A stretch of DNA of 38,945 nt, taken from IMG/VR virus record IMGVR_UViG_2531839524_000011; one strand, written 5' to 3'. A program made the translations under genes and the position numbers. The notes beneath the pieces were generated by a model that was not told the origin of the DNA, ran no database searches, and saw only the letters and a list, made by a program, of their open reading frames with translations. Source of the DNA: a virus. Lineage: Duplodnaviria; Heunggongvirae; Uroviricota; Caudoviricetes. Shown here in pieces: positions 18,133 to 35,639 of this stretch (positions within the stretch are counted from its first letter, which is position 1; each line of letters begins with the position of its first letter).

Positions 18133-18225
18133 CGACTGACCCCGTCAGCGGGCGGCGTGCGCGGTGTTCCGGTTTGACTCCGTGACCGTTTACACCGCGC
18201 ACCCACCGCCCGATTTTTTTCAGGA

Positions 18226-18729
18226 GTGAACCCCATGAGTATGGTTGCCAGAACCAACCCCGGCCCCGCAGAGGACGACATCACCGATACCGATGATGGT
18301 GATACCCGTATTTCAGCGGGTGCATTCTGGCCGGATATTGTGCTGCGTGAGCTGCGTCTGGCGGTACGACTGCCGGGCCGTGTGACCACCTCCCGTCTGC
18401 TGCATACCGCCACCGGGGCTGTGGCACACGTTACCCGCGAGCTGGAAGCATGGCAGCAGGAACAGCAGGCGGCTGGCCATCAGACGCTGGCCGATGTTCC
18501 GGCACCCGTAATTAACGGAGAAAGCGTCAATCTCTGGCACTGGCGCAATGCGGTTTACACCGCCACACGCGCCCTGATTCTGGAGCGTTACCGCGATGCG
18601 GACACAACGGACAAGGGCGACCGCCGGGCGGACGCACTGGATATACAGACATCGGATTTGTGGCGTGATGTGAGCTGGGCCATCTCTGACATTCTGTGCC
18701 GCCCGCGAATCTTTGCGGAGTTGTGCTGA
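18226..18729 (+). CDS. L: Head completion / stabilisation protein (P2 gpL-like)
   Basis: 167 aa; position after M. Confidence 0.8.
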   Translation: MNPMSMVARTNPGPAEDDITDTDDGDTRISAGAFWPDIVLRELRLAVRLPGRVTTSRLLHTATGAVAHVTRELEAWQQEQQAAGHQTLADVPAPVINGESVNLWHWRNAVYTATRALILERYRDADTTDKGDRRADALDIQTSDLWRDVSWAISDILCRPRIFAELC

Positions 18730-18929
18730 TGAAAGTAAAGGCACTGGAAGGCGACACCGTGGATTCGCTCTGTTTCCGGTACTACGGCACGACGCAGGGC
18801 GTCACCGAAAAGGTGCTGGATGCCAACCCCGGACTCTGTCAGCAGGTATTTCTGGACGCCGGGCAGGAAGTGGAGATGCCGGAGCCGGAGAAGAAGAAAC
18901 GAGAAATGATTCAGTTGTGGGGGGAGTAG
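18729..18929 (+). CDS. X: Tail protein X (LysM-like, P2 gpX-like)
   Basis: 66 aa from ATG 18729, overlapping the L stop (TGATG); MKVKALEGDTVDSLCFRYYGTT... Confidence 0.7.
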   Translation: MKVKALEGDTVDSLCFRYYGTTQGVTEKVLDANPGLCQQVFLDAGQEVEMPEPEKKKREMIQLWGE

Positions 18930-18931
18930 CA

Positions 18932-19255
18932 GTGAGCACCATTCAAACGGGGATCACAGAGCAGGTTATTGCGTGGCTCTTTGACCACCTGCCAACGGTG
19001 TATGCAGCAGGCGCAGCGGTCAGCATTTCCGCGCTGATGAGCCTTTATGACGGACGAACACTGGTTCAGACCGTAACGGGATCGCTGGCGTGCGGCGTTC
19101 TTGCCATGGCCGTGGCCGGGTCGTTGCGCTTCTTCGGGTTTCCTGAAGATGCCGTGACGTTTATCGGCGCATCAATCGGTTTTATGGGCGCAGAGAAAGC
19201 ACGCGACAAGGTTATTGCGGCCTTTAATCGCAGGGTGAAGGAGAAGGACGAATGA
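18932..19255 (+). CDS. Holin (P2 gpY-like)
   Basis: GTG start at 18932 after a ggggggag RBS-like sequence; two hydrophobic helices (GSLACGVLAMAVAGSL and FIGASIGFMGA); first gene of the lysis cassette. Confidence 0.6.
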   Translation: MSTIQTGITEQVIAWLFDHLPTVYAAGAAVSISALMSLYDGRTLVQTVTGSLACGVLAMAVAGSLRFFGFPEDAVTFIGASIGFMGAEKARDKVIAAFNRRVKEKDE

Positions 19256-19644
19256 GCAACACATTTAAATTCAGCAGCCGGAGCGAAAAGAATTTGCAGG
19301 GCGTAAATCCTGAGCTGGTGAAAGTGACCCGACGGGCACTGGAAATTTCGGAAGTGGATTTTGGTATCACCGAAGGGTTGCGCAGCCGTTACCGCCAGAA
19401 GCAACTTGTGGCCACGGGTAAGAGCCAGACCATGAACAGCCGCCACCTTACGGGGCATGCCGTGGATGTTGTGGCTTATATCGGCAGCCAGGTGTCATGG
19501 GAATGGCCGCTGTACGAAAAAATCGCAGCAGCATTCAGACAGGCCAGCCGGGAACTGAATATTCCGGTGGAATGGGGCGGCGACTGGAAGACCCTGAAAG
19601 ACGGACCGCATTTTCAGTTACCGCACGGAGTTTATCCGGCATGA
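19252..19644 (+). CDS. Endolysin, peptidase M15-type (L-alanyl-D-glutamate peptidase-like)
   Basis: 130 aa; Zn-ligand-like SRHLTGHAVDV and DGPHFQL motifs; follows the holin. Confidence 0.7.
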   Translation: MSNTFKFSSRSEKNLQGVNPELVKVTRRALEISEVDFGITEGLRSRYRQKQLVATGKSQTMNSRHLTGHAVDVVAYIGSQVSWEWPLYEKIAAAFRQASRELNIPVEWGGDWKTLKDGPHFQLPHGVYPA

Positions 19645-20048
19645 AACTCTGGCCCACGCTGGGTGTCGCTTTTCTTCTGATTGCCGCCTGGGGAGCATCC
19701 ATGCGTCTGTCGTGGTCACTGGGCCGGGAGAACGCCAGAAACGAAGCGCAGGCCAGCACCCTGAAAAGTACCGTCGACACCCTGAATATCATCAGCGCCG
19801 GGGTACAGGATATGCAGCAGGTGCTGGCACAACTCCGCGCGGAAAATCAGCAACGCAATCAGGACGGAGAGGCCAGACGTGAACAGCTACGCAACGATAT
19901 TGCAAAAGATGAATGCGCCCACGCTTTGCCTGACGCTCGTTTTACTGACAGGTTGCGCAGGCACGCAGAACGCGCCACGGCCAGCGCCGTCAGTCCGGCT
20001 TATACCGCAGACGCTGACCATACCGGTAACGCCTCCCCCCTTCCCTGA
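19641..20048 (+). CDS. i-spanin (Rz / LysB-like)
   Basis: ATG 19641; N-terminal TM helix (LWPTLGVAFLLIAAWGA) then a coiled-coil region; follows the endolysin. Confidence 0.6.
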   Translation: MKLWPTLGVAFLLIAAWGASMRLSWSLGRENARNEAQASTLKSTVDTLNIISAGVQDMQQVLAQLRAENQQRNQDGEARREQLRNDIAKDECAHALPDARFTDRLRRHAERATASAVSPAYTADADHTGNASPLP

Positions 20049-20199
20049 CACTCCCACATGGGGAAATCTCGGTATATGGGGCGACCGCCTTCTGGATGCA
20101 CTGGAAACCTGTAACGCGGATAAACGGGCCATTGAATTACTGGAACAGCGCAGGCTGCAACGACTGAACAACGAGGACAACAACCATGCTGAAAACTGA
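19909..20199 (+). CDS. o-spanin (Rz1 / LysC-like lipoprotein), overlapping the i-spanin in another frame
   Basis: MNAPTLCLTLVLLTGCAG lipoprotein signal with lipobox; proline-rich; overlapping-frame arrangement like P2 lysB/lysC. Confidence 0.6.
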   Translation: MNAPTLCLTLVLLTGCAGTQNAPRPAPSVRLIPQTLTIPVTPPPFPDTPTWGNLGIWGDRLLDALETCNADKRAIELLEQRRLQRLNNEDNNHAEN

Positions 20200-20653
20200 T
20201 TCCCTGCGTGAAGCCATGACCCGTTCATGCCGATGGTGTCAGGCCAACCCGGAAAAATTCACCATTTTCGTGGAGAGCGGCAACATTGAAACGACCGGAG
20301 AAACGCCCTCGTTTGTTTACCGCTATCAGATGGTGATGTTTGTCATGGATTACGCCGGGGAGTTGGATGACCTCACGCTGCCGCTGCTGGCGTGGTTATC
20401 CGAAAATCAGCCACAGTTGTTGCTCAACCCTGAGCGTAATCAGGACATCAAATTCTCCGCCGTTATCAATGACGATGACAGCGCCGACCTCCTGTTTACG
20501 CTCCCCCTGCGGGAACGCGTTCGCATCACGCGCAACAGTCAGGGCACACCGCAGGCAGAACACCTGCCGGAGCCAAAACCCCGTCTGCCCTCTTCCGAAG
20601 GCGACTGGTCGCATGTATTCCAGGATGTGACGTGGGGTGAAAGCGATGGATAA
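20186..20653 (+). CDS. R: Tail completion protein (P2 gpR-like)
   Basis: 155 aa; order and size match P2 R. Confidence 0.8.
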   Translation: MLKTDSLREAMTRSCRWCQANPEKFTIFVESGNIETTGETPSFVYRYQMVMFVMDYAGELDDLTLPLLAWLSENQPQLLLNPERNQDIKFSAVINDDDSADLLFTLPLRERVRITRNSQGTPQAEHLPEPKPRLPSSEGDWSHVFQDVTWGESDG

Positions 20654-21281
20654 GGCATTCACCCGCGTGGATGAAACCTTTGAGGCCATCCGCGACAGCC
20701 TGAATCAGCAGGCCATCAATAACATCGCCAGAAAGCTGGCACAGGATTTACGCCGCGCCCAGCAGGCGCGTATCCGGTCACAGAAAGCGCCGGACGGGAC
20801 CGCGTGGACACCACGCAGACGCCGCGTAACCCGGATACAGGAACGCATTCGCTTTATCTGGAATAACGAAGCACGCACGCTGAAAAACTGGCATCACGAC
20901 ACGGGGAAATACGGGCGAACCATTACCGGGGGGGATGAGGATAAAAACAATATCCGCACGTTTTACCGGGATGACATCGACCGTTTTCTGGAAATACGCA
21001 CCCGGCGCATCAACCAGGACAGCACAAAGCGCGTCCCCATGTTCGTAAAACTGCGCACCGCCCGCTACCTGAAAGCCCGTGCAGATGCTTCCGGTGTGAC
21101 GGTGGGTTACAGCGGCGTGGCCGCACGTATTGCACGCGTTCATCAGTTCGGTGAGCGCGATCAGGTTGCGCCGGGCATTTTCACCGATTACCCGGTACGT
21201 GAGCTGCTGGGTATCAGCCAGGCAGATGAGCGCCTGATTTATAACACGGTGCTGGGCCGGATTGCGGAGGCTGTACGGTGA
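20646..21281 (+). CDS. S: Tail completion protein (P2 gpS-like)
   Basis: Position between R and V; ATG 20646 (alternative 20637). Confidence 0.8.
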   Translation: MDKAFTRVDETFEAIRDSLNQQAINNIARKLAQDLRRAQQARIRSQKAPDGTAWTPRRRRVTRIQERIRFIWNNEARTLKNWHHDTGKYGRTITGGDEDKNNIRTFYRDDIDRFLEIRTRRINQDSTKRVPMFVKLRTARYLKARADASGVTVGYSGVAARIARVHQFGERDQVAPGIFTDYPVRELLGISQADERLIYNTVLGRIAEAVR

Positions 21282-21859
21282 GCGCAGAACTCATGCGACT
21301 GCTGAGCAATGTCATCCGCACCGGGATCATCTCTGAAGTTGATGAGAAGTCCTGGCGCGTGCGCGTTCGCAGCGGCGAACTGGAAACAGGCTGGTTACGC
21401 TGGAACACCACGCGCGCGGGAGCCTTCAATGTGTGGCTGCCGCCATCACCCGGCGAACAGGTGGTAATTGCCTGCATTGGCGGCAACCCGGAAACCGCCA
21501 TGATAATTGGCAGCCTGTGGAGTGATACCAATCCGGCCCCCGGCAAAAGCCTGAAAGAAATCGTGGTCAGCGCGCCGGATGGCGCGGTGTTCCGCTACGA
21601 CGCGGACGCTGGCGCACTGAGCGCCAGCGGCATGAAAACAGCCAGCCTGCAGGCATCCGTCAGCGTGACACTGGACACGCCCGTCGTGGAATGCACAAAC
21701 CTTCTGAGAACGGCGACGCTTGACGTCACAAAAGGGGGAAAGATGAGCGGCAATATCACGCACAGCGGCGGCAATTTCACCTCAAACGGCATCACAGTGC
21801 ATACGCATAAGCACGGTGGCGTTAAAGGTGGCAGCGATTCGACAGGAGGCCCGCAGTGA
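21278..21859 (+). CDS. V: Baseplate assembly / spike protein (P2 gpV-like)
   Basis: 193 aa; MSAELMRLLSNVIRTGIISEVDEKSWRVRVRSGELETGWLRW... resembles P2 gpV as recalled. Confidence 0.85.
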   Translation: MSAELMRLLSNVIRTGIISEVDEKSWRVRVRSGELETGWLRWNTTRAGAFNVWLPPSPGEQVVIACIGGNPETAMIIGSLWSDTNPAPGKSLKEIVVSAPDGAVFRYDADAGALSASGMKTASLQASVSVTLDTPVVECTNLLRTATLDVTKGGKMSGNITHSGGNFTSNGITVHTHKHGGVKGGSDSTGGPQ

Positions 21860-22206
21860 CAACCCGCTACACAGGAATGAACCCGGACGGGACGGGAAAC
21901 CTGAACGATATGGAGCACCTGAAACAGTCAGTCAGGGACATCCTGACCACCCCGCTGGCAAGCCGGGTTATGCGACGGGAATATGGCAGCCTTTTGCCTG
22001 ATTTGATTGACGAACCCATGAATAACACCACGCGTCTGCAATGCATGAGTGCTGCCGTGATTGCACTGACACGATGGGAACCCCGCATTGCCCTGGACGC
22101 CATCGACGTTGTCTGGAAGGCAGGAGGCCGCGCCGGGGTGACGCTGTCGGGCACTGTCATGCAGACCATGCAGAATGTTGAATTAACCATCACGCTGAGG
22201 GAGTAA
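21856..22206 (+). CDS. W: Baseplate wedge protein (P2 gpW / gp25-like)
   Basis: 116 aa; size and order match P2 W. Confidence 0.85.
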   Translation: MTTRYTGMNPDGTGNLNDMEHLKQSVRDILTTPLASRVMRREYGSLLPDLIDEPMNNTTRLQCMSAAVIALTRWEPRIALDAIDVVWKAGGRAGVTLSGTVMQTMQNVELTITLRE

Positions 22207-22209
22207 ATC

Positions 22210-23106
22210 ATGCCCGCCGTTGACCTTTCCCAGTTACCGGAACCCGCCATCATCGCGGAGCCTGACTTTGAAGCAATTCTGGCTGACACAAAAGCCATGA
22301 TGATTGCGTCCTATCCCGCCGAACAGCGTGAAGCCGTTTCCGCCGCGCTGGAGCTGGAATCGGAACCCCTTAACGTTATCGCCCAGACAACAGCGTTTCG
22401 TGAAATGCTGTTACGCCAGCGGGTTAACGAGGGCGCACGCGCCTGCATGTTAAGCCACAGCGCCGGGACAGACCTGGACAACCTCGCGGGCAATATGAAC
22501 ACAAAGCGCCTGGTTATCACTCCGGCAACGGATACCACCGACGCGGTGATGGAGAGCGACACCTCGCTTAGACTGCGGGCGCAGCGGGCGTACGACGGCC
22601 TGAGTGTTGCTGGCCCGTCAGGTGCATACGAGTATTTTGCCCGCAGCGCCAGCGGTCTGGTGCGTGATGCGCGGGCTATCAGTCCGTCTCCGGCCAATGT
22701 GACGGTTTCCATCCTGTCCACTGAAGGCGACGGCACAGCAACGGAGGCGTTGCTTAATACCGTTCGCGCCGTTCTGAATGCAGAGGATACCCGCCCGGTG
22801 GCCGACCGCCTGACGGTACAGAGCGCCAGAATCGTGACATGGCGGCTGAATGCAAAACTGTACTTTTACCCCGGCCCGGAATCCGAACCTATTCTGGCCG
22901 CAGCTGAATCGTCGTTCAGGAAGTGGCTGGCTGAGCAGGGGCTTATCGGTCAGGACGTGGCGTTGTCCGCCATTGCTGCCGCACTGCATGTGCACGGTGT
23001 GCAACGCGTGGAGATAATCGAACCCACACAGAATATGGCCATCAGCGACATACAGGCGGCGCGCTGTGAGTCATTCACCATCAGCGAAGGTGGGCGCAAT
23101 GAGTAA
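22210..23106 (+). CDS. J: Baseplate protein (P2 gpJ-like)
   Basis: 298 aa; order V-W-J-I. Confidence 0.85.
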   Translation: MPAVDLSQLPEPAIIAEPDFEAILADTKAMMIASYPAEQREAVSAALELESEPLNVIAQTTAFREMLLRQRVNEGARACMLSHSAGTDLDNLAGNMNTKRLVITPATDTTDAVMESDTSLRLRAQRAYDGLSVAGPSGAYEYFARSASGLVRDARAISPSPANVTVSILSTEGDGTATEALLNTVRAVLNAEDTRPVADRLTVQSARIVTWRLNAKLYFYPGPESEPILAAAESSFRKWLAEQGLIGQDVALSAIAAALHVHGVQRVEIIEPTQNMAISDIQAARCESFTISEGGRNE

Positions 23107-23629
23107 TTCACTGTTACCGCCATCAGCCAGCAGTTTCATGCGTTGCGCCGAAGCTGTCGGAGCGCGCATTACAGACATCCCGGTAGACCTCAACACGCTG
23201 TGGTCACCGGACACCTGCCCGGTGCATCTGCTGCCTTATCTCGCCTGGGCATTTTCCGTTGACCGCTGGGATCGCAACTGGCCGGAAGAGACAAAGCGAC
23301 AGGTTATTCGTGATGCATGGCTGATACACCGACACAAAGGGACCATCAGCGCACTGCGCCGGGCCATTGAGCCGCTGGGATACCTCATTCGTGTGTCTGA
23401 GTGGTGGGAGTTCGGCGGAGAACCGGGAACATTTACCGTTGAAGTCGGCACGCTGGACAGTGGCGTGACGGAGGAAATGTATCTGGAAATGGAGCGGTTG
23501 ATTGCTGATGCCCGCCCGGCCAGCCGCCACATGACAGGGCTGAATATCATTCAGGAAATTCCGGGAGATATTTTCGCGGCGGCAGCAACTTACGACGGTG
23601 AAGTCATTACCATTTATCCGGACGATTAA
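23099..23629 (+). CDS. I: Baseplate protein (P2 gpI-like)
   Basis: ATG 23099 (MSNSLLPPSASSFMR...); precedes the tail fibre gene. Confidence 0.8.
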   Translation: MSNSLLPPSASSFMRCAEAVGARITDIPVDLNTLWSPDTCPVHLLPYLAWAFSVDRWDRNWPEETKRQVIRDAWLIHRHKGTISALRRAIEPLGYLIRVSEWWEFGGEPGTFTVEVGTLDSGVTEEMYLEMERLIADARPASRHMTGLNIIQEIPGDIFAAAATYDGEVITIYPDD

Positions 23630-23631
23630 GC

Positions 23632-26055
23632 ATGAGTACCACAACACGAAAATTTAAAACCGTTATCACCGATACGGGTGCAAAAAAATTAGCTCAGGCA
23701 GCCGCGCCAGATGGTAAGCCAGTCCGCCTGACTCATATGGCCGTGGGCGACGGTGGCGGCACGTTGCCCACACCAGACAGTAAGCAGACCCGTCTGGTGC
23801 ATGAGGTGTGGCGACACACTGTTAATCGCGTCATCCTGGACGCAACACATCAGAACCGCATTATTGCGGAGCTGGTTATTCCTCCTGAAACGGGCGGATT
23901 CTGGATCCGGGAAATTGGTGTATTTGATGAGCACGGCGATTTAATCGCGGTGGGCAATACTGCCGAAAGTTACAAGCCAGCCGTTGCCGAAGGGTCCGGT
24001 CGTGCACAAACGTTTCGCACCATTCTGACCGTATCCAGCACTGCCACCGTGGCGCTTACCGTGGATAACACCATGGTGATGGCCACAGTGGATTACGTGG
24101 ATGACAAACTGAAAGAGCATGAACGGTCACGACGTCACCCGGACGCCTCGCTGACCGCAAAAGGCTTTGTTCAACTCAGTAGCGCCACTAACAGCGTGTC
24201 TGAAACGCAGGCTGCAACGCCGAAAGCAGTAAAGGCAGCATATGACCTGGCTAATGGCAAATACACCGCACAGGACGCTACCACTGCGCGGAAAGGGATA
24301 GTTCAGCTCAGTAGCGCCACCAACAGCACGTCTGAAACGCAGGCTGCAACGCCGAAAGCAGTAAAGACCGCGTATGATCTTGCTAACGGTAAATATACTG
24401 CGCAGGATGCCAGCACGACGCGAAAAGGCCTTGTCCAGCTCAGTAGCGCCACCAACAGCACGTCTGAAGCGCAGGCTGCAACGCCGAAAGCAGTAAAGGC
24501 CGCGTATGACCTTGCTAACGCAAAATATACCGCTCAGGACGCCACGACGGCACAAAAAGGGATAGTCCAGCTCAGTAGTGCCACCAACAGCACGTCTGAA
24601 ACACTGGCCGCGACACCAAAAGCGGTTAAGGCGGTAATAGATGAAACGAACAAGAAAGCGCCCTTAAACAGCCCGGCGCTGACCGGAACGCCAACAACAC
24701 CAACTGCGCGACAGGGAACGAATAATACCCAAATCGCAAGCACGGCTTTCGTTATGGCTGCGATTGCCGCACTTGTAGACTCGTCGCCTGACGCACTGAA
24801 TACGCTGAACGAGCTGGCGGCGGCGCTGGGAAACGACCCGAATTTTGCGACCACCATGACTAACGCGCTTGCGGGTAAGCAACCGAAAGATGCCCCCCTG
24901 ACGGCGCTGGCCGGGCTTGCTACTGCGGCAGACAGGTTTCCGTATTTTACGGGGAATGATGTCGCCAGCCTGGCAACCCTGACAAAAGTCGGGCGGGATA
25001 TTCTTGCGAAATCGACCGTTGCCGCTGTTATCGAATACCTCGGTTTACAGGAAACGGTAAATCAGGCTTCTGGCGCATTACAGAAAAAACAGAACGGCGC
25101 AGATATTCCCGATAAAAAACTATTCCTGCGTAATATCGGCACAACAAATTCAACAACCATGTCTTTTAGTGGTGGTGCTGGATGGTTCAAACTGGCAACT
25201 GTAACAATGCCACAAGCCAGTTCCGTGGTTTACATAAGCCTGATTGGTGGCGCAGGGTATAACGTTGGCTCCTCGCATCAAGCAGGCATCTCTGAGCTGG
25301 TTCTGCGTGCCGGAAATGGGAATCCAAAAGGTATTACTGGTGCATTATGGCGACGGACATCGGTTGGATTTACTAATTTTGCATGGGTGAATACATCCGG
25401 TAATACCTATGATGTTTATGTTGAAATAGGTAATTACGCCACAGGTGTTAATATTCAGTGGGATTATACCAGTAACGCCAGCGTAACGATTCATACATCA
25501 CCAACTTATACAGCGAATAAACCAACAGGCCTGACAGATGGAACTGTATATGTAATTTACAGTTCGCACATTAAACCGACTGCTGCTGAGGTTGGGGCGT
25601 TGTCATTATCTGGCGGTCAATTGAATGGTGCACTGGGCATCGGAACATCCAGTGCTCTTGGCGGTAACTCGATTGTTTTGGGTGATAATGACACGGGATT
25701 TAAACAAAATGGCGACGGGTATCTGGATGTTTATGCTAATAACGTCCATGTTATGCGCTTTGTCTCCGGCAGCATTCAAAGTAATAAAACCATAAATATT
25801 ACAGGGCGTGTTAACCCCTCGGATTACGGTAACTTTGATTCTCGTTATGTGAAAGATGTTCGACTTGGTTCACAGCAATATTATGGAGTGAACAACTGGC
25901 AAACATGGAATTTCCAGTGCCCTTCAGGTCATGTATTGTCTGGTATTAATGTTCAGGATACAGGTTCCAACTCTGCCGATAATATAGCGGGCGTTTATTA
26001 CAGACCCGTCCAAAAGTATATAAATGGCACCTGGTATAATGTAGCGAGCGTTTAA
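23632..26055 (+). CDS. H: Tail fibre protein (P2 gpH-like), current-orientation C-terminus
   Basis: 807 aa; four tandem 44-aa fibre repeats ([20 protein letters not shown]...); the gix crossover site lies in-frame at 25028..25053. Confidence 0.9.
24161..24690 (+). repeat. Tandem 132-bp (44-aa) repeats, about four copies, inside H
   Basis: Repeat units begin near 24161, 24293, 24425 and 24557 ([44 protein letters not shown]). Confidence 0.7.
25028..25053. other. gix/cix/hix-type 26-bp inversion crossover site (left)
   Basis: ttatcgaatacctcggtttacaggaa; 24/26 identity to the reverse complement of the right site; the inverted homology extends about 56 bp further into the segment. Confidence 0.7.
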
Positions 26056-26056
26056 T

Positions 26057-26584
26057 ATGATGCACTTAAAGAACATAAAAGCGGGTAACGCTAAAACACT
26101 GGAACAGTATGAGTTAACAAAGAAACACGGAGTTATCTGGCTTTACTCTGAGGACGGAAAAAACTGGTATGAGGAAGTGAAAAACTTTCAGCCAGACACA
26201 ATAAAGATTGTTTACGATGCAAATAATATTATTGTCGCCATCACCAAAGATGCATCCACGCTTAATCCCGAAGGTTTTAGCGTTGTCGAGGTTCCAGATA
26301 TTACAGCCAACCGCCGCGCTGATGATTCAGGAAAGTGGATGTTTAAGGACGGAGCTGTGGTTAAGCGGATTTATACGGCAGACGAACAGCAACAACAGGC
26401 CGAATCACAAAAGGCCGCATTGCTTTCCGAAGCTGAATCAGTCACCCAGCCACTGGAACGCGCTGCCAGGCTGAATATGGCAACAGACGAGGAGCGCACA
26501 CGACTGGAAGCATGGGAACGCTACAGTGTTCTGGTCAGCCGTGTGGATACAGCAAAGCCCGAATGGCCACAAAAGCCTGAATAA
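26057..26584 (+). CDS. G: Tail fibre assembly chaperone (P2 gpG-like)
   Basis: 175 aa directly after H; paralogous to the minus-strand 26613..27146 ORF (both begin MMHLKNI...AGN.KT.EQY.LTK). Confidence 0.8.
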
Positions 26585-26612
26585 AAATTAAGGCCCGCTA
26601 TCGGGCCTTGTC

Positions 26613-27146
26613 TCATTCAGGTTGTTCGGGAAATGTTACTGGCAGGCTGGAGGGGTCTGTGGATTCGACTTTCTGCGCATAGAGCATCCACTCGGTTAAT
26701 TTTTGTTTATTCTCGTCGGAAATGATGCCCAGCCGTAGCTGTGAGTCCCATAGCTGGGTTTTATCCCTGACAAGTTGCAACAGGCTTTGCTTTTCATTCT
26801 CTGCCTGCTGCCTCTGTTCCTCCCCGGTATAAGTTCGCTTTATCACCACGCCATCTTTGAACATCCATTTACCCGAAATATCAGCCCGGCGATTTGCTGT
26901 AATATCAGGTAATTCAACGACGCTTGCGCCTTCTGGGTTAATTGCTGAAACATCCTTTTCAATACAAATAATAACGCCGTTATGGTCATAGGCCATTTTC
27001 AATGTGTCTGGCCGGAAATTCTTTTGTTCCTCATACCAGTTTTTTCCATCATCTGAATAAAGCCATTTGATGTTAAATTGCTTTGTTAGCTGGTATTGCT
27101 CTTTTGTTTTAGGATTGCCAGCAGTAATGTTTTTTAAGTGCATCAT
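26613..27146 (-). CDS. Alternative tail fibre assembly chaperone (G'), used after inversion
   Basis: 177 aa paralogue of G on the opposite strand inside the invertible segment. Confidence 0.8.
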   Translation of the reverse strand: MMHLKNITAGNPKTKEQYQLTKQFNIKWLYSDDGKNWYEEQKNFRPDTLKMAYDHNGVIICIEKDVSAINPEGASVVELPDITANRRADISGKWMFKDGVVIKRTYTGEEQRQQAENEKQSLLQLVRDKTQLWDSQLRLGIISDENKQKLTEWMLYAQKVESTDPSSLPVTFPEQPE

Positions 27147-27148
27147 AA

Positions 27149-28093
27149 TTAAATACTCCCCGCGTTATACCACGTTCCATTAATGCAATACTGAACTGGC
27201 CTTGCCTGTGTTGTATCAATTAATTCATCACGGTTTCCGTTAACTGAACCCGTAACGACATAACCTGACCTGTCAGACCAGCCGGGACCATTCCATGTCT
27301 GAACAGATGACAGACCGCCCAGACGAATACCTGTAATAAACTTTGAGTTACATTCCGCTTTGGTATATGCACCAACATCCCCCGCAGAGGGCTTGTAGGT
27401 TGTGGTGTAAAACGCTGACCAGTTATCTTCAAAGCCATAACCATCACGCGCTGAACGATAAAGGATACCGCCGTTCCTGTAATTCACACGGAACTGTACG
27501 GCAGGGCAACTCCCCGTATTCATATTGAAGTGGAGTATTAATGCTGTTGCGCCTTTGATATCTGCATCATAAACACCGCTATTCCAGTTCCAGCCAACAG
27601 CTTTATCATTTGCAACCCTGCTTCCTGTCTGCCCTAAAGCAAATGCAGGCTGCTGGTTTTTCGTGTTGTAGTCTCGTCGCCAGCCAGGAGCATAAGCATC
27701 ACCATGATTAATATAGGTGAATTGAGCGTTAGTAATTCCGCCGCCGCTGGACGTGCTCGGCGTGGTAACGCGTATGGTCATTGCGCCGCGAGTGCCAATA
27801 ACTTCCACCACAGCACCTGCAAGACAAATATTTCCGCAACCTGTATCTGTAATGACCTTATTATTTGCATAAGCCCATGAGCCTTTGCACATCCAGTAAG
27901 GATGGTTAAATGCCCCCTGACTCTCCAGCCACGAAATGAATTGTGCGGTTGTCCAGGCCTGACTATCGCCACCAATATTCAGCCATGCGCTATATGCGCG
28001 GCAGGCACCAATATTTTTGGTGAAGGTATCTTTTCCCGGAATATCTGCGCCGTTCTGTTTTTTCTGTAATGCGCCAGAAGCCTGATTTACCGT
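27149..28093 (-). CDS. Alternative tail fibre C-terminal segment (H'), has no start of its own; fuses to H after inversion
   Basis: The minus-strand frame is open from the right gix site (reads [15 protein letters not shown], identical to H at the left site) through ...WMCKGSWAYANN... to the stop at 27149. Confidence 0.7.
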   Translation of the reverse strand, partial: TVNQASGALQKKQNGADIPGKDTFTKNIGACRAYSAWLNIGGDSQAWTTAQFISWLESQGAFNHPYWMCKGSWAYANNKVITDTGCGNICLAGAVVEVIGTRGAMTIRVTTPSTSSGGGITNAQFTYINHGDAYAPGWRRDYNTKNQQPAFALGQTGSRVANDKAVGWNWNSGVYDADIKGATALILHFNMNTGSCPAVQFRVNYRNGGILYRSARDGYGFEDNWSAFYTTTYKPSAGDVGAYTKAECNSKFITGIRLGGLSSVQTWNGPGWSDRSGYVVTGSVNGNRDELIDTTQARPVQYCINGTWYNAGSI

Positions 28094-28119
28094 TTCCTGT
28101 AAACCGAGGTTTTAGATAA
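28094..28119. other. gix/cix/hix-type 26-bp inversion crossover site (right)
   Basis: ttcctgtaaaccgaggttttagataa, reverse complement ttatctaaaacctcggtttacaggaa, the classic Gin/Hin/Cin crossover consensus. Confidence 0.75.
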
Positions 28120-28173
28120 TGGCCGTTTCTGGCCTGCATGGCATGATTTGCGCTTTTGGACGGGAGATTCAGT

Positions 28174-28761
28174 GTGCTGATTGGCTATGTAAGGGTATCA
28201 ACAAATGACCAGAATACAGACCTGCAACGAAACGCTCTTGTTTGTGCAGGATGTGAACAAATATTTGAAGATAAATTAAGCGGGACAAAGACAGACCGAC
28301 CGGGATTAAAACGCGCTTTAAAGCGCCTTCAACAAGGTGACACGCTGGTTGTCTGGAAACTGGATCGCCTCGGGCGAAGCATGAAACATCTGATTTCTCT
28401 CGTCGGGGAACTACGGGAGCGAGGGATTAATTTTCGCAGTCTGACCGACAGCATAGATACATCTTCTCCAATGGGGCGTTTTTTCTTCCACGTGATGGGT
28501 GCCCTGGCTGAAATGGAACGTGAATTAATTGTAGAGCGTACACTGGCCGGTCTGGCAGCAGCACGCGCACAAGGACGCACAGGCGGACGTCGCCCGAAGC
28601 TGACAAAAGAACAGAATGAGCAAATAGCAAGGCTGATTAAAAACGGGCACGACAGAAAACAACTGGCAATAATTTACGGCATTGGTACATCGACGATTTA
28701 TCGTTACCACCCCGCAGGAGAATCAAGCGGAACAATTGAGAAGAGTCAGGAAACAAAATAA
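28174..28761 (+). CDS. gin: Serine DNA invertase, Gin/Hin/Cin/Pin family
   Basis: LIGYVRVSTNDQNTDLQRNAL...GDTLVVWKLDRLGRSMKHLISLVGELRERGINFRSLTDSIDTSSPMGRFFFHVMGALAEMERELI is near-identical to Mu Gin as recalled; GTG start at 28174 (TTG at 28156 possible). Confidence 0.9.
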   Translation: MLIGYVRVSTNDQNTDLQRNALVCAGCEQIFEDKLSGTKTDRPGLKRALKRLQQGDTLVVWKLDRLGRSMKHLISLVGELRERGINFRSLTDSIDTSSPMGRFFFHVMGALAEMERELIVERTLAGLAAARAQGRTGGRRPKLTKEQNEQIARLIKNGHDRKQLAIIYGIGTSTIYRYHPAGESSGTIEKSQETK

Positions 28762-28796
28762 CCGCTAATCTGGTCATTAGCGGTTTTTGTGTTAAA

Positions 28797-29291
28797 TCAG
28801 AACAGCCCTTTAACTGAACTGGCCGCGCTGTTAAGAGATGATGTCACCTTATCTTTGAAGCCGGACAGCATATCGCTGAACGATGAGGATTGCAGGCGCT
28901 CCCGCAAATCCTCATCACAGCGTTCAAGGGTCAGTGAAAATTCTATCTTTTTCGCCTTACCGTAGCGATCAAACTCGGAACGGGTCGTATTCGTTTCAGT
29001 CAGTACATACATGCCGTAAATCTGCCCGACACCATCAATCAGAGGCCAGGGGCGTCCTGTATATGCCTGCGTGGTCAGCAACGAAAGCGACACTTCGCCA
29101 CCTGTAATTTCAGGATAAAGCACGCCGGAAAGCACGATGCGATCATCACCTGCGCCGATATACTGCCAGCTTGCTGAACGGTTAACGCGTTCATTTTTCA
29201 CATGCCGCCAGCTTTTGTTTTGCTGTAACTGCTGATGCGGCAATGTGCGCAGCTCAAAAACAAACATGCCGTAGATCATCATCATGGCCAT
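28797..29291 (-). CDS. U: Tail protein (P2 gpU-like)
   Basis: 164 aa; position downstream of the tape measure gene on the minus strand. Confidence 0.8.
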   Translation of the reverse strand: MAMMMIYGMFVFELRTLPHQQLQQNKSWRHVKNERVNRSASWQYIGAGDDRIVLSGVLYPEITGGEVSLSLLTTQAYTGRPWPLIDGVGQIYGMYVLTETNTTRSEFDRYGKAKKIEFSLTLERCDEDLRERLQSSSFSDMLSGFKDKVTSSLNSAASSVKGLF

Positions 29292-29297
29292 GACTCC

Positions 29298-32141
29298 TCA
29301 ATCTTTATCGTAAAAACTGCCACGCCCGGCACGGGCACGCCGTTCCATTTCTGCCCTGACCATTTCACCGACCAGTTTCGCCAGTTCGCGGGGATTCTGC
29401 GTAACAACGTTATGCAGATGAACATGAATTTCATCGCCAAATCCTGAGGCAACAGGTTCCCGGTTACGCGAAGGTGTTGGGGCTGATGCCACTGGCGATC
29501 GTATGGCCTCCGCCACCGGGCGGGAGCTGGCCGCAACAACAGGGACCAGCGCCGGAGGCAGCGGGGCCGGAACCACAGGCGTGATATTAATTGCGGGGGC
29601 AGGCTTACTGACCTGCGCAATCTTCCGCTCCTGCCACTCCCCACGAACGGCAAGTGCGCGGGGCAGGTTCTTAAAGACAATATCGCCGGGGCCAATGCGT
29701 TTTTTCGTCTCATCAACCAGCTTACCTGTGTTATCAGCAATTTTGCTGAGTCTGCGTAGCGTACCGGTATTGCTGTCTGTGAGCGGTTTGTTGTCTTTGG
29801 GTTTATCACCTCCGGTGCCATTGCCATTTTCCACAGGCTTCGGCGGATTGATTTTCGCCAGGTCACCCTGAAGCAAGGCAACCTTGTCCTGAAGAATGGC
29901 CGCACGCTGTGCGTCTTCGATTTTCTTTCTCGCCCTTTCCGCTTCATCCGGAAGCACACCGAGTTTTTCAAGTATCCACGCCAGCGTATCCAGCAACATT
30001 TTTGCTGGCGTCAGAACAAGCTGTAACGCGCCACCAAGAACGTTACCGAATATCTCGCCAGCACTGGTACATTTATCCAGAGTTTCCTTGCTGGACTCCA
30101 TCGGTGACAGCAGCGATTTAAACCAGTTAAACACCTGGCTGATCCCACTCCCGATTGCGTCAAAAACAGGACCAAACCGTTCAAAGGTTTCGCGCAACGG
30201 GGTCAGCCTTTCCATAATCCCGCTGAACACCCCGGCAAAAAATGCCCTGATGGGATCCCAGTATTTCCAGATAAGAACGGCAGCTCCGGCAAGCGCAGCC
30301 ACGATAAGACCAACCGGACTGAACAACGCCCCGATAGCGCCTCCCAGTAAAGAAACGGAACCCGTCACCATTCCCCATAGTGCTGGCAGAACCCTGACAG
30401 CATTCATTGATCCGGTCAGGAGGGAAAAACCAAGACGCAGTTTTGCCAGCGGGCCAGCAAGCACACCAATAGCCAGCGACAACGAGCCAACCGTTGCAGT
30501 CATTGCCAGCAGTGCACCGCCTGCAATCAGTAGCTGGCGCGTCAGTGCGGGATGGGCCTGCGCCAGCGCCGTCACCTTTGATACCACACGCGTGAGCCAC
30601 TGCGTGACAGAACGCAGCGGACCGTCAATCAGATCTGCAATGCGGATGCGCAACCCTTCCCATGCACTGCTGAGTGATTTCAGATCGCCGTCAAGGTTGT
30701 TGGCCATAACCTTTGCCGTGCGTTCAGCCTCACCGCGCGCGCCTTCAAGTTCTTTTCTCAGTTTGGGTAAGGAGCCGTCACCTGCCGCATCAACGAGGGC
30801 CATAAATGATGTGAAAGCCTCTTCTCCGGCAATGTCCTTAAAGAACGATACCCGGTCAACTTCCCCGTATTTGCGGGTAGCTTTATAAAGGTCAGCCAGC
30901 ACATCCTCCATCGGGCGCATTTTGCCCCCGGCATCCGAGACAGACACGCCAAGCTCTTTCAGCGCCTCTGCTGCCGCCTTTGGCGGTGATGCCAGACGAG
31001 CCAGGCTGGCACGCATTGCCGTACCAGCATCACTCCCCCTGATACCCATATTCGCCAGTACGCCCGCCATCGCTGCGGCCTGCTCCAGCGATATTCCCAG
31101 CTTACCCGCCACCGGACCTGCATATTTCATGGTTTCACCCAGTGCGCGAAGGTCAGTGTTGGTACGGGTAAACGCTGTGGTGAGTGTGTCGCCGACCCGG
31201 TCCATCTGGTCAGCAGAAAGACCGAACTGCGTCAGAATATTTGAGCCAATATCCGCCGTCTCACCGAGGTCCATACCGCCAGCCGTTGCCATGCTCAGTA
31301 CGCCAGGGAGCGCAGCCTGAATGGCCTGTGGTGTAAAGCCAGCCATTGCAAGAAATGCCTGTCCACTGGCGGCATCGCCTGCGGTGAACTGCGTTTCAGA
31401 GCCAAGTTTTAACGCCTGCTCACGCAGCGCCTTAAACTGCGGGCTGTTCTGGTCGATTCGCGTCAGTGCCTGAACGCGGGACATCTCTTTGCCGAACCCG
31501 ATCGCAGGCTGCAAAAAACGCCCGGCAGCATAGCCGCCCGCCGCTGCCGCACCAATTGCCAGCGCACCACCTGTTTTCAGTTTTCCCGCTGTTTCCTGCG
31601 CGCGCGAATACCGCTCACGCGCCCGTGTTACACGCGCAAGCGCCTGCCGTTCGCGTTCAAGCTGGTTGTTGTACTGTTCGGTGCGTCTGATGGCCTGCTG
31701 GATGGTGTTATCGCTGCCTGTCAGGGAAATGCCGTGGCGTTTCAGCTCTCCGCCAAGCTCCCGCATTTTCTGAATTTCCCGTGTGCGCGATTCATTCAGG
31801 CGTTCAAGCCGGGTGCTTAACTGCTGCATCAGCTTTTGTTGTTTTTCGCTGAGCACTGTACCCGTGCGTTGTAACTGATTAAGGGCGTTAAGCTGGCGTC
31901 GCGCTTTCACGATACCCGCATCCGCTTTACTGACAGCGTCGCGGGCGCGCTCAAATGAACGCGCCTGACGCTCGAGATTTTTGATCGCCCCCTGCGTTCG
32001 CTGGATGGAGTCACCAAACCGCCCCATCAGGCGGCGGGCGTTTTCGGCAGGTCGGGTCAGCCTGTCAACGGCGCTGAAAGCGACCCGGATATCAAGAGTC
32101 TTCATTGTCTGCATTCCCGCTGCGAAGTGCCGCCCGCTCAC
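29298..32141 (-). CDS. T: Tail tape measure protein (P2 gpT-like)
   Basis: 947 aa; coiled-coil N-terminal part, long Gly/Ala-rich hydrophobic central region; position between E/E' and U. Confidence 0.9.
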   Translation of the reverse strand: MSGRHFAAGMQTMKTLDIRVAFSAVDRLTRPAENARRLMGRFGDSIQRTQGAIKNLERQARSFERARDAVSKADAGIVKARRQLNALNQLQRTGTVLSEKQQKLMQQLSTRLERLNESRTREIQKMRELGGELKRHGISLTGSDNTIQQAIRRTEQYNNQLERERQALARVTRARERYSRAQETAGKLKTGGALAIGAAAAGGYAAGRFLQPAIGFGKEMSRVQALTRIDQNSPQFKALREQALKLGSETQFTAGDAASGQAFLAMAGFTPQAIQAALPGVLSMATAGGMDLGETADIGSNILTQFGLSADQMDRVGDTLTTAFTRTNTDLRALGETMKYAGPVAGKLGISLEQAAAMAGVLANMGIRGSDAGTAMRASLARLASPPKAAAEALKELGVSVSDAGGKMRPMEDVLADLYKATRKYGEVDRVSFFKDIAGEEAFTSFMALVDAAGDGSLPKLRKELEGARGEAERTAKVMANNLDGDLKSLSSAWEGLRIRIADLIDGPLRSVTQWLTRVVSKVTALAQAHPALTRQLLIAGGALLAMTATVGSLSLAIGVLAGPLAKLRLGFSLLTGSMNAVRVLPALWGMVTGSVSLLGGAIGALFSPVGLIVAALAGAAVLIWKYWDPIRAFFAGVFSGIMERLTPLRETFERFGPVFDAIGSGISQVFNWFKSLLSPMESSKETLDKCTSAGEIFGNVLGGALQLVLTPAKMLLDTLAWILEKLGVLPDEAERARKKIEDAQRAAILQDKVALLQGDLAKINPPKPVENGNGTGGDKPKDNKPLTDSNTGTLRRLSKIADNTGKLVDETKKRIGPGDIVFKNLPRALAVRGEWQERKIAQVSKPAPAINITPVVPAPLPPALVPVVAASSRPVAEAIRSPVASAPTPSRNREPVASGFGDEIHVHLHNVVTQNPRELAKLVGEMVRAEMERRARAGRGSFYDKD

Positions 32142-32310
32142 GCCAGCTAACCACTTCGCCGGGCGTCATCATGAAGATTTCGGCGGGCGACCAGTTAAAA
32201 ATAACGGCAATATCTGCCACAAAGTCTTCTATGTGCTCAAAGCACACAACCGTGATCAGGCTTCCGTCGCCTGTTCGTTCTTCCCGCCAGAGTCCGCACC
32301 GCTCAAAAAA
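32092..32310 (-). CDS. E' frameshift extension of the tail assembly chaperone (E+E' product made by -1 slippage)
   Basis: The -1 frame is open across the slippery heptamer T-TTT-TTG (minus strand, plus coordinates 32304..32310) and continues RKFFERCGLW... to a stop overlapping the T start. Confidence 0.5.
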   Translation of the reverse strand, partial: FFERCGLWREERTGDGSLITVVCFEHIEDFVADIAVIFNWSPAEIFMMTPGEVVSWRERAALRSGNADNEDS

Positions 32311-32621
32311 TTTACGGCAACCACACATAACTGAATAAAGTCACGGGATGCCATTTTTTTGATCGTCACTTCATCCAGTCGCGGTGATGTCACGCGTGAC
32401 AGCAGCGTAAACATGGATTCCGCTTTCAGATTCAGCACATCAGACAGCGACAAATCTCGCAGAGATCCAGCCTGCTCAATAGCCCCGGTGATCTCCACAT
32501 ACGTGATTTTTTCGCCGCTTCGCTCAATTGGTTGGGTAAGTTTTACGCCACGCTCACTGGTTTCTTTCACAGTGTCAGTAACTACCGTGTTTTCGGTATC
32601 GATGTTTTTCGTCTCTTTCAT
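32256..32621 (-). CDS. E: Tail assembly chaperone (P2 gpE-like)
   Basis: 121-aa ORF between the tail tube and tape measure genes; contains the slippery site near its 3' end. Confidence 0.75.
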   Translation of the reverse strand: MKETKNIDTENTVVTDTVKETSERGVKLTQPIERSGEKITYVEITGAIEQAGSLRDLSLSDVLNLKAESMFTLLSRVTSPRLDEVTIKKMASRDFIQLCVVAVNFLSGADSGGKNEQATEA

Positions 32622-32675
32622 CAGGAAACTCCTTTCAGTCAGAGGCGACGCACTGCGCCGCCTGCATATTACTTA

Positions 32676-33188
32676 TCAGCCAAGCCCAAGCGCGGAACGG
32701 ATGCGATCGGGCACAATGTCCTTGCCGTCCTTCCGGTAAATGAAGTTCAGCAGGTCAATCTCCCACAACGGGCGATCGTTAACGCTCAGCTTGTAGTAGG
32801 TGTTTTTAATGGCGTAAGTGTGTGATGTGGCTTCGCCCTGTTTGGCTTCCCCCATATCAATTTCCGTCACACGTCCGCGCATTTCGACTTCATACAGGTC
32901 GCTTTCTGCATCGGTGTAGTATTCACCCGCAAAACGCAGCAGCGTGCCGTCAATCGTGCCGCCATACTTAAGGAACAGCTCACGAACTGCGCCCCCCATG
33001 ACAAAGCTCGCATCAAGCGCGGAGTCGTCCAGACCGAGATCAATACTTACCGCCCCCATCATGCCACCACCCCGGTAGCTGTCGGTTTTGCGCGTCAGTT
33101 TGGGCAGAGTGACGGACGTCACCTTACCCACTTCGTTTTCACCATCCACAAACAGCGTAAAAAAGCGAAGATGTTTTGGCACAGCCAT
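32676..33188 (-). CDS. FII: Tail tube protein (P2 gpFII-like)
   Basis: 170 aa immediately downstream of the sheath gene; size matches FII. Confidence 0.85.
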   Translation of the reverse strand: MAVPKHLRFFTLFVDGENEVGKVTSVTLPKLTRKTDSYRGGGMMGAVSIDLGLDDSALDASFVMGGAVRELFLKYGGTIDGTLLRFAGEYYTDAESDLYEVEMRGRVTEIDMGEAKQGEATSHTYAIKNTYYKLSVNDRPLWEIDLLNFIYRKDGKDIVPDRIRSALGLG

Positions 33189-34372
33189 CAGGCACCTCCC
33201 AGCACCGCAAATGCGGGTTCAAAGTATTCATCAGTAAACGTCTGGTAAAGCTCCATATCTTCCAGCGGGGGAACAGGCGTATATTTGTAGCGAATACGCA
33301 CACGCCCCTGACGTAAATCCGTGGTGCTGTTATCCACCACGTCATACCAGCACTCCGCGCCAATCAGTTTCCCGGCAGTCACCAGTGAATCCAGTTTTGC
33401 CCTGATGGCGCTGATAACATCCTTCACGTTCGCAGGCGTCAGTGGACTGTCGATGGTTTCAAACTGCGCTTCCGCAATTGAATCAGCCAGCACCTGTGCG
33501 GTTCGGGTATACACCTCAAAGATGTAGGCGTTCGTTTCCGGTGTGCGGTTGCCCCAGAAGCGGAACCCGTTGCGACGAATAATGGTCGTGATTTCTTTGT
33601 TATTGAGGCTGTTGGCATCACTGTCTTCGGCCTGCAACGACCAGAACACATGCCTCGACATCCCCAGCACATTTTTAACCGGAACGTTGGACAGCGATTT
33701 GTGCCAGCCCTGCTCATGGTCAATGTACGCACGAAGGCCGCACGCATAAGCAGGAGCGGGGAACGTTTCGTTTTTGCCACTTTTCGGGTTGTAGGCGATG
33801 AAGTCAGGCCATAAGAGCATCACCTCACGTTCGTTGAATTTCTGGCGGTAGGTAATTGCCTCAGCCATCGTGTTACAGTCATGACATGAGGCATACACAA
33901 ACGCGCGCAGTTTACCCGCAATCACGCACAGGGATTTTGTCACCGCCTCCGTGTCCAGCTCCGGCGCGGCCAGAATACGCGGACGGTATCCGATGCTTTC
34001 ATCCTGCTCTGCAACAAGCAGCGCATACATCCCCGTATAGCTGCCGTCAGATTCAGAACCACCGATAACCAGTTGATCCTGCGTCTTACCGCCTTCTTCT
34101 TTGTGTTCAGCCACGCGAACGACGATCACCTTTGTGCTCACCTGGTCTGCGATGGCCTTAAGCGCACGATAAAGCGTCCCCGTTGTCCCGCATTTTCCCA
34201 GCACGTCATTGACGCGGGTCAGCAATGTGGGCTTGTTCAGCGGGAACAGCTTCGCGTCCGCATCATCCGCCGTTGCCACGATACCGATAACACTGGAATC
34301 AACATCATTAATCGCTGTTACCAGGTCGGTATTTTCCGTAACACGGGCACCATGAAAACGAGTTTCACTCAT
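33188..34372 (-). CDS. FI: Tail sheath protein (P2 gpFI-like)
   Basis: 394 aa; size and position match the contractile sheath. Confidence 0.9.
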   Translation of the reverse strand: MSETRFHGARVTENTDLVTAINDVDSSVIGIVATADDADAKLFPLNKPTLLTRVNDVLGKCGTTGTLYRALKAIADQVSTKVIVVRVAEHKEEGGKTQDQLVIGGSESDGSYTGMYALLVAEQDESIGYRPRILAAPELDTEAVTKSLCVIAGKLRAFVYASCHDCNTMAEAITYRQKFNEREVMLLWPDFIAYNPKSGKNETFPAPAYACGLRAYIDHEQGWHKSLSNVPVKNVLGMSRHVFWSLQAEDSDANSLNNKEITTIIRRNGFRFWGNRTPETNAYIFEVYTRTAQVLADSIAEAQFETIDSPLTPANVKDVISAIRAKLDSLVTAGKLIGAECWYDVVDNSTTDLRQGRVRIRYKYTPVPPLEDMELYQTFTDEYFEPAFAVLGGA

Positions 34373-34529
34373 AGCTTCAGCCCCTTGTATCCGTTAAATG
34401 ATTCGGCAACAATCATCACCCACCACGCGCGTAATCTCACCCCCTGCGCCGTTCTCCCGCCACGGCGACAACAAAAAGCAGTAACCCCCTCCGCACGCAC
34501 ATGCGACCATGCCGCACAGGGAGGGAAAG

Positions 34530-35639
34530 ATGACCGACACCACCATGCAATTGCTCAGTCAGAGCACAGACCCCGTGAAAATGCCGGATTTTGATATTCT
34601 CGCGGAGGGGGAAACGCTGTCCGGCGTGGCAGAGCGCCTGATGAGTCTGTCACTGACCGACAACCGGGGATTTGAAGCGGACCAGCTCACCATCACGCTG
34701 GATGATGCGGATGGTCAGTTGCAGCTACCGCCACGGGGCGCGCGCCTGACGGTTCTCATTGGCTGGAAAGGAGAACCGCTGACAGAAAAAGGCACTTACA
34801 TTGTTGATGAAATCGCTCACGAAGGACCGCCGGACAGGCTGACGGTTTCAGCCAGAAGCGCAGATTTTCGGGATGAATTTAACGTTAAACGTGAGGTGTC
34901 CTGGCATGATGTGACCGTTGAGCGAGTGGTATCCGCCATCGCTCATCGGTACGGTCTGAAACCGCAAATCAGCGAAATGCTGATGGATATCGAAATCGAC
35001 CACGCCGACCAGACCGAAGAAAGTGACATGTCCTTCCTTACGCGCATGGCGGAAATGCTGGGCGCAATCACTACGGTAAAAAGCGGTAATCTGTTATTCA
35101 TCATGCCAGGTGGTGGCGTGAACGCACTGGGCCAGCCGTTGCCATCGTTCGCCATCACACGCAGCAGCGGCGATCGCCATCAGTTCCGCATTGCTGACCG
35201 CGAAGCGTATACGGGGGTACGCGCTTACTGGCTTGATCTTAATTACGGGAAAAAGAAAAAAGTCAGCGTGAAACGCCGCAAACCGCCAAAACCCAAAAAG
35301 GAGAAAAGCAGCAGCCGTGAAGGTGATTATATGGAAGGCGCAGAAGGCAATGTGTTTGTGTTACGCAAGACTTATCAGAACGAGCAGGCAGCAAGACGCG
35401 CAGCAGCGGCAAAATGGCAGCAGCTACAACGCGGAGCCGCATCATTCTCCATCACGCTGGCGCGTGGACGCGCAGAACTCTATCCCGAAATGCATGGCAC
35501 GGTGAAAGGCTTCAAAAGTGACATCGACAATCAGGACTGGATTATTGCAAAAGCTGAGCACACCATTGATAACAGCGGCTTTACCACACAGCTTGAGCTT
35601 GAGGCAAAAATCCCGGAATGGATAGCGGAAACAGAGTGA
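34530..35639 (+). CDS. D: Tail protein D (P2 gpD-like)
   Basis: ATG 34530 after agggaggga RBS; about 370 aa; position between FI and ogr. Confidence 0.85.
   Translation: MTDTTMQLLSQSTDPVKMPDFDILAEGETLSGVAERLMSLSLTDNRGFEADQLTITLDDADGQLQLPPRGARLTVLIGWKGEPLTEKGTYIVDEIAHEGPPDRLTVSARSADFRDEFNVKREVSWHDVTVERVVSAIAHRYGLKPQISEMLMDIEIDHADQTEESDMSFLTRMAEMLGAITTVKSGNLLFIMPGGGVNALGQPLPSFAITRSSGDRHQFRIADREAYTGVRAYWLDLNYGKKKKVSVKRRKPPKPKKEKSSSREGDYMEGAEGNVFVLRKTYQNEQAARRAAAAKWQQLQRGAASFSITLARGRAELYPEMHGTVKGFKSDIDNQDWIIAKAEHTIDNSGFTTQLELEAKIPEWIAETE

Follow-up and report, generated by a model that had tools for sequence, protein, structure and literature searches.

A stretch of viral DNA of 38,945 nucleotides (nt) (IMG/VR record IMGVR_UViG_2531839524_000011, Caudoviricetes; the whole stretch is called here the window) carries in its tail-fibre region a locus that we take, with a probability of roughly 0.9, to be a functional DNA-inversion switch of the Gin type. 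By the standard Gin mechanism, it would control the host range of a prophage similar to phage P88. The tail-fibre gene H has one constant 5' exon that lies outside an invertible segment of about 3.05-3.07 kb and is in frame with either of two opposed 3' exons within it. The segment is bounded by inverted crossover sites, adjoins the gene of a serine DNA invertase, and is found in both orientations, one in the window and the other in a nearly identical prophage of Escherichia coli 99-3165.

The window comprises a complete P2-family prophage: integrase, gpA, portal, terminase, gpU and gpD families were all found. It is collinear with phage P88 (Xuanwuvirus, Peduoviridae), with 96-97% DNA identity over window positions 18159-25066 and 26011-34800, and the sole break in this collinearity is one replaced variable exon, Hv (~25067-26010). 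Judged by its P2-type gene content and P88 gene order, the host element is a P88-type prophage. The parts of the locus are listed here by their positions in the window.

23632-25039, plus strand: constant N-terminal part of H, amino acids (aa) 1-469, up to the crossover dinucleotide (open reading frame (ORF), Pfam, identity to P2 H)
25028-25053, plus strand: left crossover site, similar to gixL, TTATCGAATACC-TC-GGTTTACAGGAA, in frame within H
25028-25116, no strand: left arm of the 89-nt inverted repeat (repeat finder)
25054-26055, plus strand: Hv, the expressed variable C-terminal exon of H (ORF, in-silico inversion)
26057-26584, plus strand: G, the tail-fibre assembly chaperone expressed with Hv (Pfam Caudo_TAP, E = 4.6e-36)
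26590-26609, no strand: G+C-rich terminator-like hairpin close to mid-segment, where G and G' converge
26613-27146, minus strand: G', the alternative tail-fibre assembly chaperone, silent in the sequenced orientation (Pfam Caudo_TAP, E = 7.8e-36)
27149-28093, minus strand: H'v, the silent alternative variable C-terminal exon of H (in-silico inversion, identity to Mu and P88, Pfam)
28031-28119, no strand: right arm of the 89-nt inverted repeat (repeat finder)
28094-28119, minus strand: right crossover site, similar to gixR, TTATCTAAAACC-TC-GGTTTACAGGAA as read on the minus strand
28174-28283, plus strand: 5' 110 nt of the invertase gene, the presumed place of the Fis-bound recombinational enhancer, sis (alignment)
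28174-28761, plus strand: serine DNA invertase of the Gin/Hin/Cin/Pin family, 195 aa, GTG start (Pfam, PDB, identity to Gin and to the P88 invertase)
28760-28785, no strand: bidirectional terminator-like hairpin between the invertase gene and a convergent gpU-like tail gene

Crossover sites, tail-fibre exons and chaperones

The repeat finder returned an inverted repeat of 89 nt, 94% complementary, with arms at 25028-25116 and 28031-28119 spaced 2914 nt apart. The outer ends of the repeat are the two 26-bp crossover sites, imperfect palindromes in inverted orientation with the same central dinucleotide, TC, and the arms are fully identical from site position 10 to position 82 (73 nt). A degenerate pattern of the site, with up to three mismatches allowed, fits no place in the 38.9-kb window beyond these two. 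It found 0 matches in 100 dinucleotide-preserving shuffles, so that none is expected by chance, and it also fits the sites of Mu and P88 with no mismatch at the specified positions. An earlier reading of the window, made from the sequence only, had described a segment of about 3.05 kb between inverted 26-bp sites with some 80 bp of inverted homology; repeat finder, pattern scan and shuffles all agree with it, and its coordinates are correct throughout. A multi-site shufflon, whether of the Min type of p15B or like the three-repeat locus of P2-like prophages in enteropathogenic E. coli (EPEC), was considered and ruled out, there being no extra site in the window within three mismatches.

In the sequenced orientation, H occupies 23632-26055 and encodes 807 aa. 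Its constant part is a fibre shaft of the P2 type, with a tail-collar N-terminal domain (PF12571) and four Phage_fiber_2 repeats (PF03406). It is 73% identical to P2 H over aa 7-254 and 93% identical over aa 259-485, the similarity stopping just past the gix site, and the sequence-only reading was right to call the fibre P2-type. Within H, at 24159-24630, are three tandem 132-bp repeats, 85-86% identical to one another, that encode 44-aa Phage_fiber_2 repeats. These are more numerous in the H of the window than in that of P2, which explains part of the difference in length between the two proteins.

Both 3' exons can be joined to this shaft. When the segment is inverted in silico (reverse complement of 25040-28107, with crossover at the central TC), H stays open and passes from 807 to 788 aa: residues 1-493 stay as they are, the remaining 314 give way to 295 others, and G' then follows H in place of G. 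This and the ORF uphold two further claims of the earlier reading, that the left site lies in frame inside H and that a minus-strand H' exon without a start, together with G', is placed to replace the C-terminus of H and G. The open frame of H' runs on the minus strand from 27149 to about 28105 and is closed upstream by an in-frame TAA within the right gix site. Because of this stop codon, H' has no start of its own and is not translatable by itself. A simple scan, the only kind made, found no promoter-like site facing H'v at the right end of the segment.

The two variable exons have little in common. Hv consists of a 23-aa leader that it shares with H'v, then 314 aa specific to the sequenced orientation. 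Apart from the leader and a C-terminal motif, INGTWYN, the two are not alike, and their overall identity is 28% (77 of 277 aligned positions). H'v is closely akin to Mu S'v (94% aa identity) and to P88 H'v (95%) and has a weak Pfam match to gp37_C. Hv, the putative receptor-binding tip, has no match in P88 and does not resemble Mu Sv; its aa sequence is 85% identical to a cassette of Mu-like Yersinia phages and, in the C-terminal half, 82% identical to the H of some P2-like coliphages. With tips so different from each other, and one of them so near to a Mu tip, the two orientations would be expected to give different host ranges.

The leader also accounts for the length of the inverted repeat. 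In Mu and P88, similarity between the arms fades after ~34 nt, while here it extends over 82-89 nt, because both variable exons (25054-25116 and 28031-28093) open with the same leader, of the S' type. This suggests that the Hv exon may have been gained by recombination inside an S'-type leader.

The present left junction, between the constant part of H and an Hv of this type, has its best matches (98% identity) on records of ~48-50 kb annotated as plasmids. The matching plasmid records belong to E. coli ATCC 25922, 25POL and E300082 and measure roughly 48-94 kb. They may be phage-plasmids with the same tail-fibre cassette.

Each variable exon is paired with a chaperone gene, G or G', that begins 2-3 nt past the stop codon of its own exon. 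G is 90% identical to Mu U, 91% to P88 G and 87% to P2 G. G' is 95% identical to Mu U' and 97% to P88 G'; the identity between G' and G is 57%.

The invertase and its presumed enhancer region

The GTG from which the invertase gene begins corresponds to the start annotated for Mu gin. Its product has the Resolvase (PF00239, E = 2e-50) and HTH_7 (PF02796, E = 9e-14) domains and matches the crystallised Mu Gin (PDB 4M6F/3UJ3) with E = 5e-100. Overall, it is 85% identical to wild-type Mu Gin and 98% identical to the invertase of P88. Over residues 1-120, there are two differences from Gin (K39 and Q54), giving a catalytic domain that is 98% Gin-like. The similarity of the gene to Mu DNA ends near 28539, at about codon 122, where the catalytic domain and E-helix join the DNA-binding domain. 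Beyond this point, the protein is ~54% identical to Gin and 96% identical to the P88 enzyme, and its DNA-binding domain scores 52.4 bits against Hin (PDB 1HCR) versus 48.7 against Gin. By alignment, then, the invertase is a mosaic, Gin-like in its catalytic domain and like P88 and Hin in its DNA-binding domain. It had been described as a near-Mu-identical member of the Gin family, which holds for the family and for residues 1-120 but not for the protein as a whole, least of all for the DNA-binding domain.

The residues on which activity should depend are in place. The reading frame is full length, and alignment to the Gin structures puts the nucleophile at Ser9 within an intact YVRVSTNDQ, as the sequence-only reading had it. 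Met114 is retained; in Gin, its change to Val makes the enzyme independent of Fis (PMC3575834). McLean et al. 2013 (PMC3798978) described residues uniquely conserved in the invertases that depend on Fis and an enhancer, through which these enzymes contact both. In Hin, the set includes K47/R48/K51 in helix B and Q151/R154/L155 in helix 1 of the DNA-binding domain. All have their equivalents here, as K46/R47/K50 and Q150/R153/L154.

The sequence from 28174 to 28283 is 100% identical in the window, Mu gin and P88. The enhancer of Mu lies 'within the invertase gene' in the account of Kahmann et al. 1985 given in PMC10434027, and the identity to Mu suggests that the present gene has kept the enhancer in its 5' part. 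Two 15-mers resembling the Fis consensus lie at 28196 and 28244, a spacing of 48 bp; as signs of Fis sites they are weak, since the consensus is degenerate. A scan for Fis sites was dropped as stand-alone evidence, as a degenerate consensus of the Huebner-Arber type gave 6 matches in 320 nt.

Inversion and its alternatives

Complete E. coli genomes were searched with junction sequences built for each orientation. The right junction as sequenced (H'v beside the invertase and P88-type tail genes) occurs in 64 genomes and the flipped right junction (Hv beside the invertase and P88-type tail genes) in three, counts that show only that both junction types exist and are not the orientation ratio of this cassette, since many of the 64 have a different Hv partner. 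One strain, E. coli 99-3165, allows the comparison to be made over the whole locus. It carries the same prophage, with flanks 98-99% identical to those of the window, and the segment from 25028 to 28119 aligns to the other strand. The locus is collinear with the isomer flipped in silico, and the breakpoints fall inside the repeats: the outer half-sites have not moved (TTATCGAATACC remains on the side of H and TTATCTAAAACC on the side of the invertase), while the inner ends of the repeats have changed places. As far as sequence comparison can tell, this is the arrangement to be expected of site-specific inversion.

Inversion has been observed in this type of prophage. In 'Entero_P88' prophages of sequence type 131 (ST131) isolates, a preprint (bioRxiv 10.1101/2022.05.07.487787) reports reversible inversion between GpH and a Mup49/S-like gene, adjacent to a phage DNA invertase, with PCR and restriction digest as confirmation. 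Goldberg et al. 2014 (PMC4272514) found that orientations co-exist in two other P2-like prophages of EPEC. The paper on P88 itself (PMC5285337) mentions neither an invertase nor inversion.

The switch would work as follows. The late operon would be transcribed through the constant part of H into the invertible segment, so that in the sequenced orientation the 807-aa fibre ends in Hv and chaperone G follows. Dimers of the invertase would bind both inverted 26-bp gix sites, which would synapse on supercoiled DNA with the enhancer in the 5' part of the invertase gene, bound by Fis supplied by the host. Ser9 would then cleave both sites at the central TC, and half of the tetramer would rotate by 180 degrees before religation. 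After inversion, the constant part of H would be in frame with H'v (giving the 788-aa fibre), G' would follow, and the Hv-G pair would be silent. A population of lysogens would thus release a mixture of virions with two receptor specificities. Since H'v and G' are ~94-95% identical to Mu S' and U', the state that expresses them should have a host range resembling that of Mu G(-).

Several observations weigh against a working switch. The source organism is represented by a single assembly in a single orientation and offers no direct evidence of inversion. In a simple scan, the invertase gene had no sigma-70-like promoter. Its product is only ~54% identical to Gin over the DNA-binding domain, though the half-sites hardly differ from those of Mu. 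The enhancer is placed by its identity to Mu rather than by mapping, and the matches to the Fis consensus are weak as evidence. Lastly, the natural isomers fit homologous exchange at any point of the 73 nt of identity as well as they fit site-specific exchange at the TC core.

The single orientation, the lack of a promoter-like site upstream of the invertase gene in the simple scan, and the divergence of the DNA-binding domain from that of Gin would all suit a frozen relic, its architecture intact, that does not flip to any meaningful extent in its host and expresses only Hv-G. Expression of the invertase might be low, or its DNA-binding domain, having diverged, might be weak on these sites. 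Decay does occur, as related lambdoid prophages have truncated recombinase genes of 64 aa beside the same cassette. A relic is nonetheless improbable here. The invertase is full length and has kept its catalytic, Fis-contact and helix-B residues, and both silent genes are intact. The P88 invertase, 98% identical to it, comes from a group of prophages that have been observed to invert, and a prophage 98-99% identical to that of the window has the segment in the opposite orientation.

Less probable still, to the point of being hard to credit, is inversion driven mainly not by the invertase but by RecA, through homologous recombination between repeats that are unusually long (82-89 nt): the repeats do exceed those of Mu and P88 in length, and the natural isomers leave the exchange point unplaced within 73 identical nt, but such a length of identity is a poor substrate for RecA when set against an intact site-specific system with conserved sites, enzyme and enhancer region, and inversion in the homologous systems (Gin, Hin, Cin, Pin) is established to depend on the recombinase (PMC3575834).

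Related cassettes and their meaning

The nearest relative of the Gin-type switch in the window is that of P88 (KP063541 / NC_026014), which has the same order of genes: baseplate J and I, H, G, inverted G' and H'v, the invertase, and then convergent gpU, tape measure, tube and sheath. Its crossover sites are identical to those of the window, and its invertase, G' and H'v are 98%, 97% and 95% identical in aa sequence to their counterparts. It differs in that the expressed Hv of the window (~25067-26010) is of an unrelated type and in the length of the repeat (82-89 nt in the window versus ~34 nt).

The G segment of Mu has the same plan: a constant exon, gixL, Sv-U, inverted U'-S'v, gixR, then gin. 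The gix sites of the two differ only at positions 6 and 9. DNA similar to that of Mu (~92% identity) spans 25993-28539 and so includes the end of H, both chaperone genes, H'v and the right site, along with the catalytic half of the invertase gene. The phage of the window, however, belongs to the P2 family, with a constant part of the P2 H type, an Hv in place of Sv, and an invertase whose DNA-binding domain is ~54% identical to that of Gin. The description of the locus in the earlier reading as similar to the Mu G segment is therefore apt in that every structural element is present and intact, but it does not extend to the expressed Hv; on present alignments, likeness to Mu is limited to both chaperone genes, H'v and the 5' portion of the invertase gene, and the tip of H that is expressed falls outside it.

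Also comparable are the C segment of P1 and P7 with Cin and the P segment of e14 with Pin, where Fis-dependent serine invertases likewise flip C-terminal exons of tail fibres together with chaperones. Cassettes of P7, P1 and D6 match the window at 26011-28078 with 89-94% identity. The systems of P1/P7 and e14 differ from that of the window in residing on different host replicons. The crossover sequences of the e14-type systems and of the P2-like systems of EPEC are of the pix type (AAACCTTGGTTTGGGAGAAG), not the gix type. The EPEC P2-like inversions (PMC4272514) were considered as instances of the same cassette and ruled out on this account: with pix-type repeats, they represent a different module of the same family. 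Hin of Salmonella, acting at hix, belongs to the same enzyme family and uses the same mechanism, and its Fis-contact residues are kept in the invertase of the window. What Hin flips, however, is a promoter rather than coding exons, and the system, a chromosomal one, has no relation to tail fibres.

Canonical P2 (NC_001895) has the same fibre N-terminus and shaft. Its H contains a solitary gix-like site, TTATCGAATATCTCGGTTTACAGGAA, with one mismatch, at codons homologous to those of the left site of the window, but P2 lacks a second site, an invertase, and any alternative exon or chaperone. Also, its tail genes FI to D run after H-G in the same direction and not convergently. The solitary site could be a relic, or a landing pad for the exchange of cassettes. 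It was sought in 'Peduovirus P2' NC_070906 as well and not found there.

The invertible segment and invertase gene (25000-29000) have a G+C content of 43-49%, compared with 54-62% in the flanking tail genes. The switch module is thus compositionally foreign to the prophage, and the word 'grafted', which the sequence-only reading used of a switch set upon a P2-type fibre, fits for this reason and for the type of H. The graft is old and widespread, however, and the arrangement is not a new one, being standard in P88 and in many prophages of E. coli.

Some other genes of the window stand apart from the switch. Between the replication/ParM-like region and the portal gene, a pair of genes on the minus strand (10165-11885) encodes a 399-aa AAA_15 ATPase (PADLOC match to AbiLi, E = 8e-28) and a 174-aa protein with a weak match to AbiLii and the Toprim region of GajA; the pair is probably anti-phage defence cargo in a P2 hotspot. 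Directly 3' of the replication gene gpA, on the plus strand, is a gene for an actin-like segregation protein of the ParM/StbA type (8760-9719; Pfam E = 2e-82), an unusual cargo for an integrated prophage of the P2 family. Downstream of gpD, an ORF with a VasI domain (type VI secretion) at 36789-37682, also on the plus strand, is probably either cargo at the prophage end or part of the host flank.

The same gix-bounded cassette of fibre and chaperone genes, with identical gix sites, occurs in lambdoid prophages at the potB locus of E. coli E66, 504239, 503025 and TW10828. These orphan cassettes lie downstream of gpJ-lom-stf, and the adjoining recombinase gene is of 195 nt (64 aa). Their combinations and orientations vary between the strains, which are of the enterotoxigenic type (ETEC). 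TW10828 carries, besides its orphan potB cassette, a P88-like prophage with an intact invertase of 195 aa. Perhaps invertases of the P88 type act in trans on orphan gix-bounded cassettes of co-resident lambdoid prophages whose recombinase has decayed, a suggestion that we offer tentatively and would not favour as things stand. If it is true, a single prophage would govern the host-range states of several. It is established that Gin, Cin, Pin, Hin and Fin complement one another in trans, so control across prophages would extend what is known and not constitute a new principle.

Tail-fibre inversion switches of the Gin, Cin and Pin type have been textbook material since the 1980s, and the particular arrangement described here is also known already: it has been deposited and annotated for P88 and for dozens of prophages of E. 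coli, and prophages of this type have been observed to invert. The locus thus carries little weight as a discovery, and its practical use is in annotation. The minus-strand 'partial tail fibre' is not a pseudogene, and the orientation in which the segment happens to be assembled is one of two states. For the induced phage, a bimodal host range should be expected.

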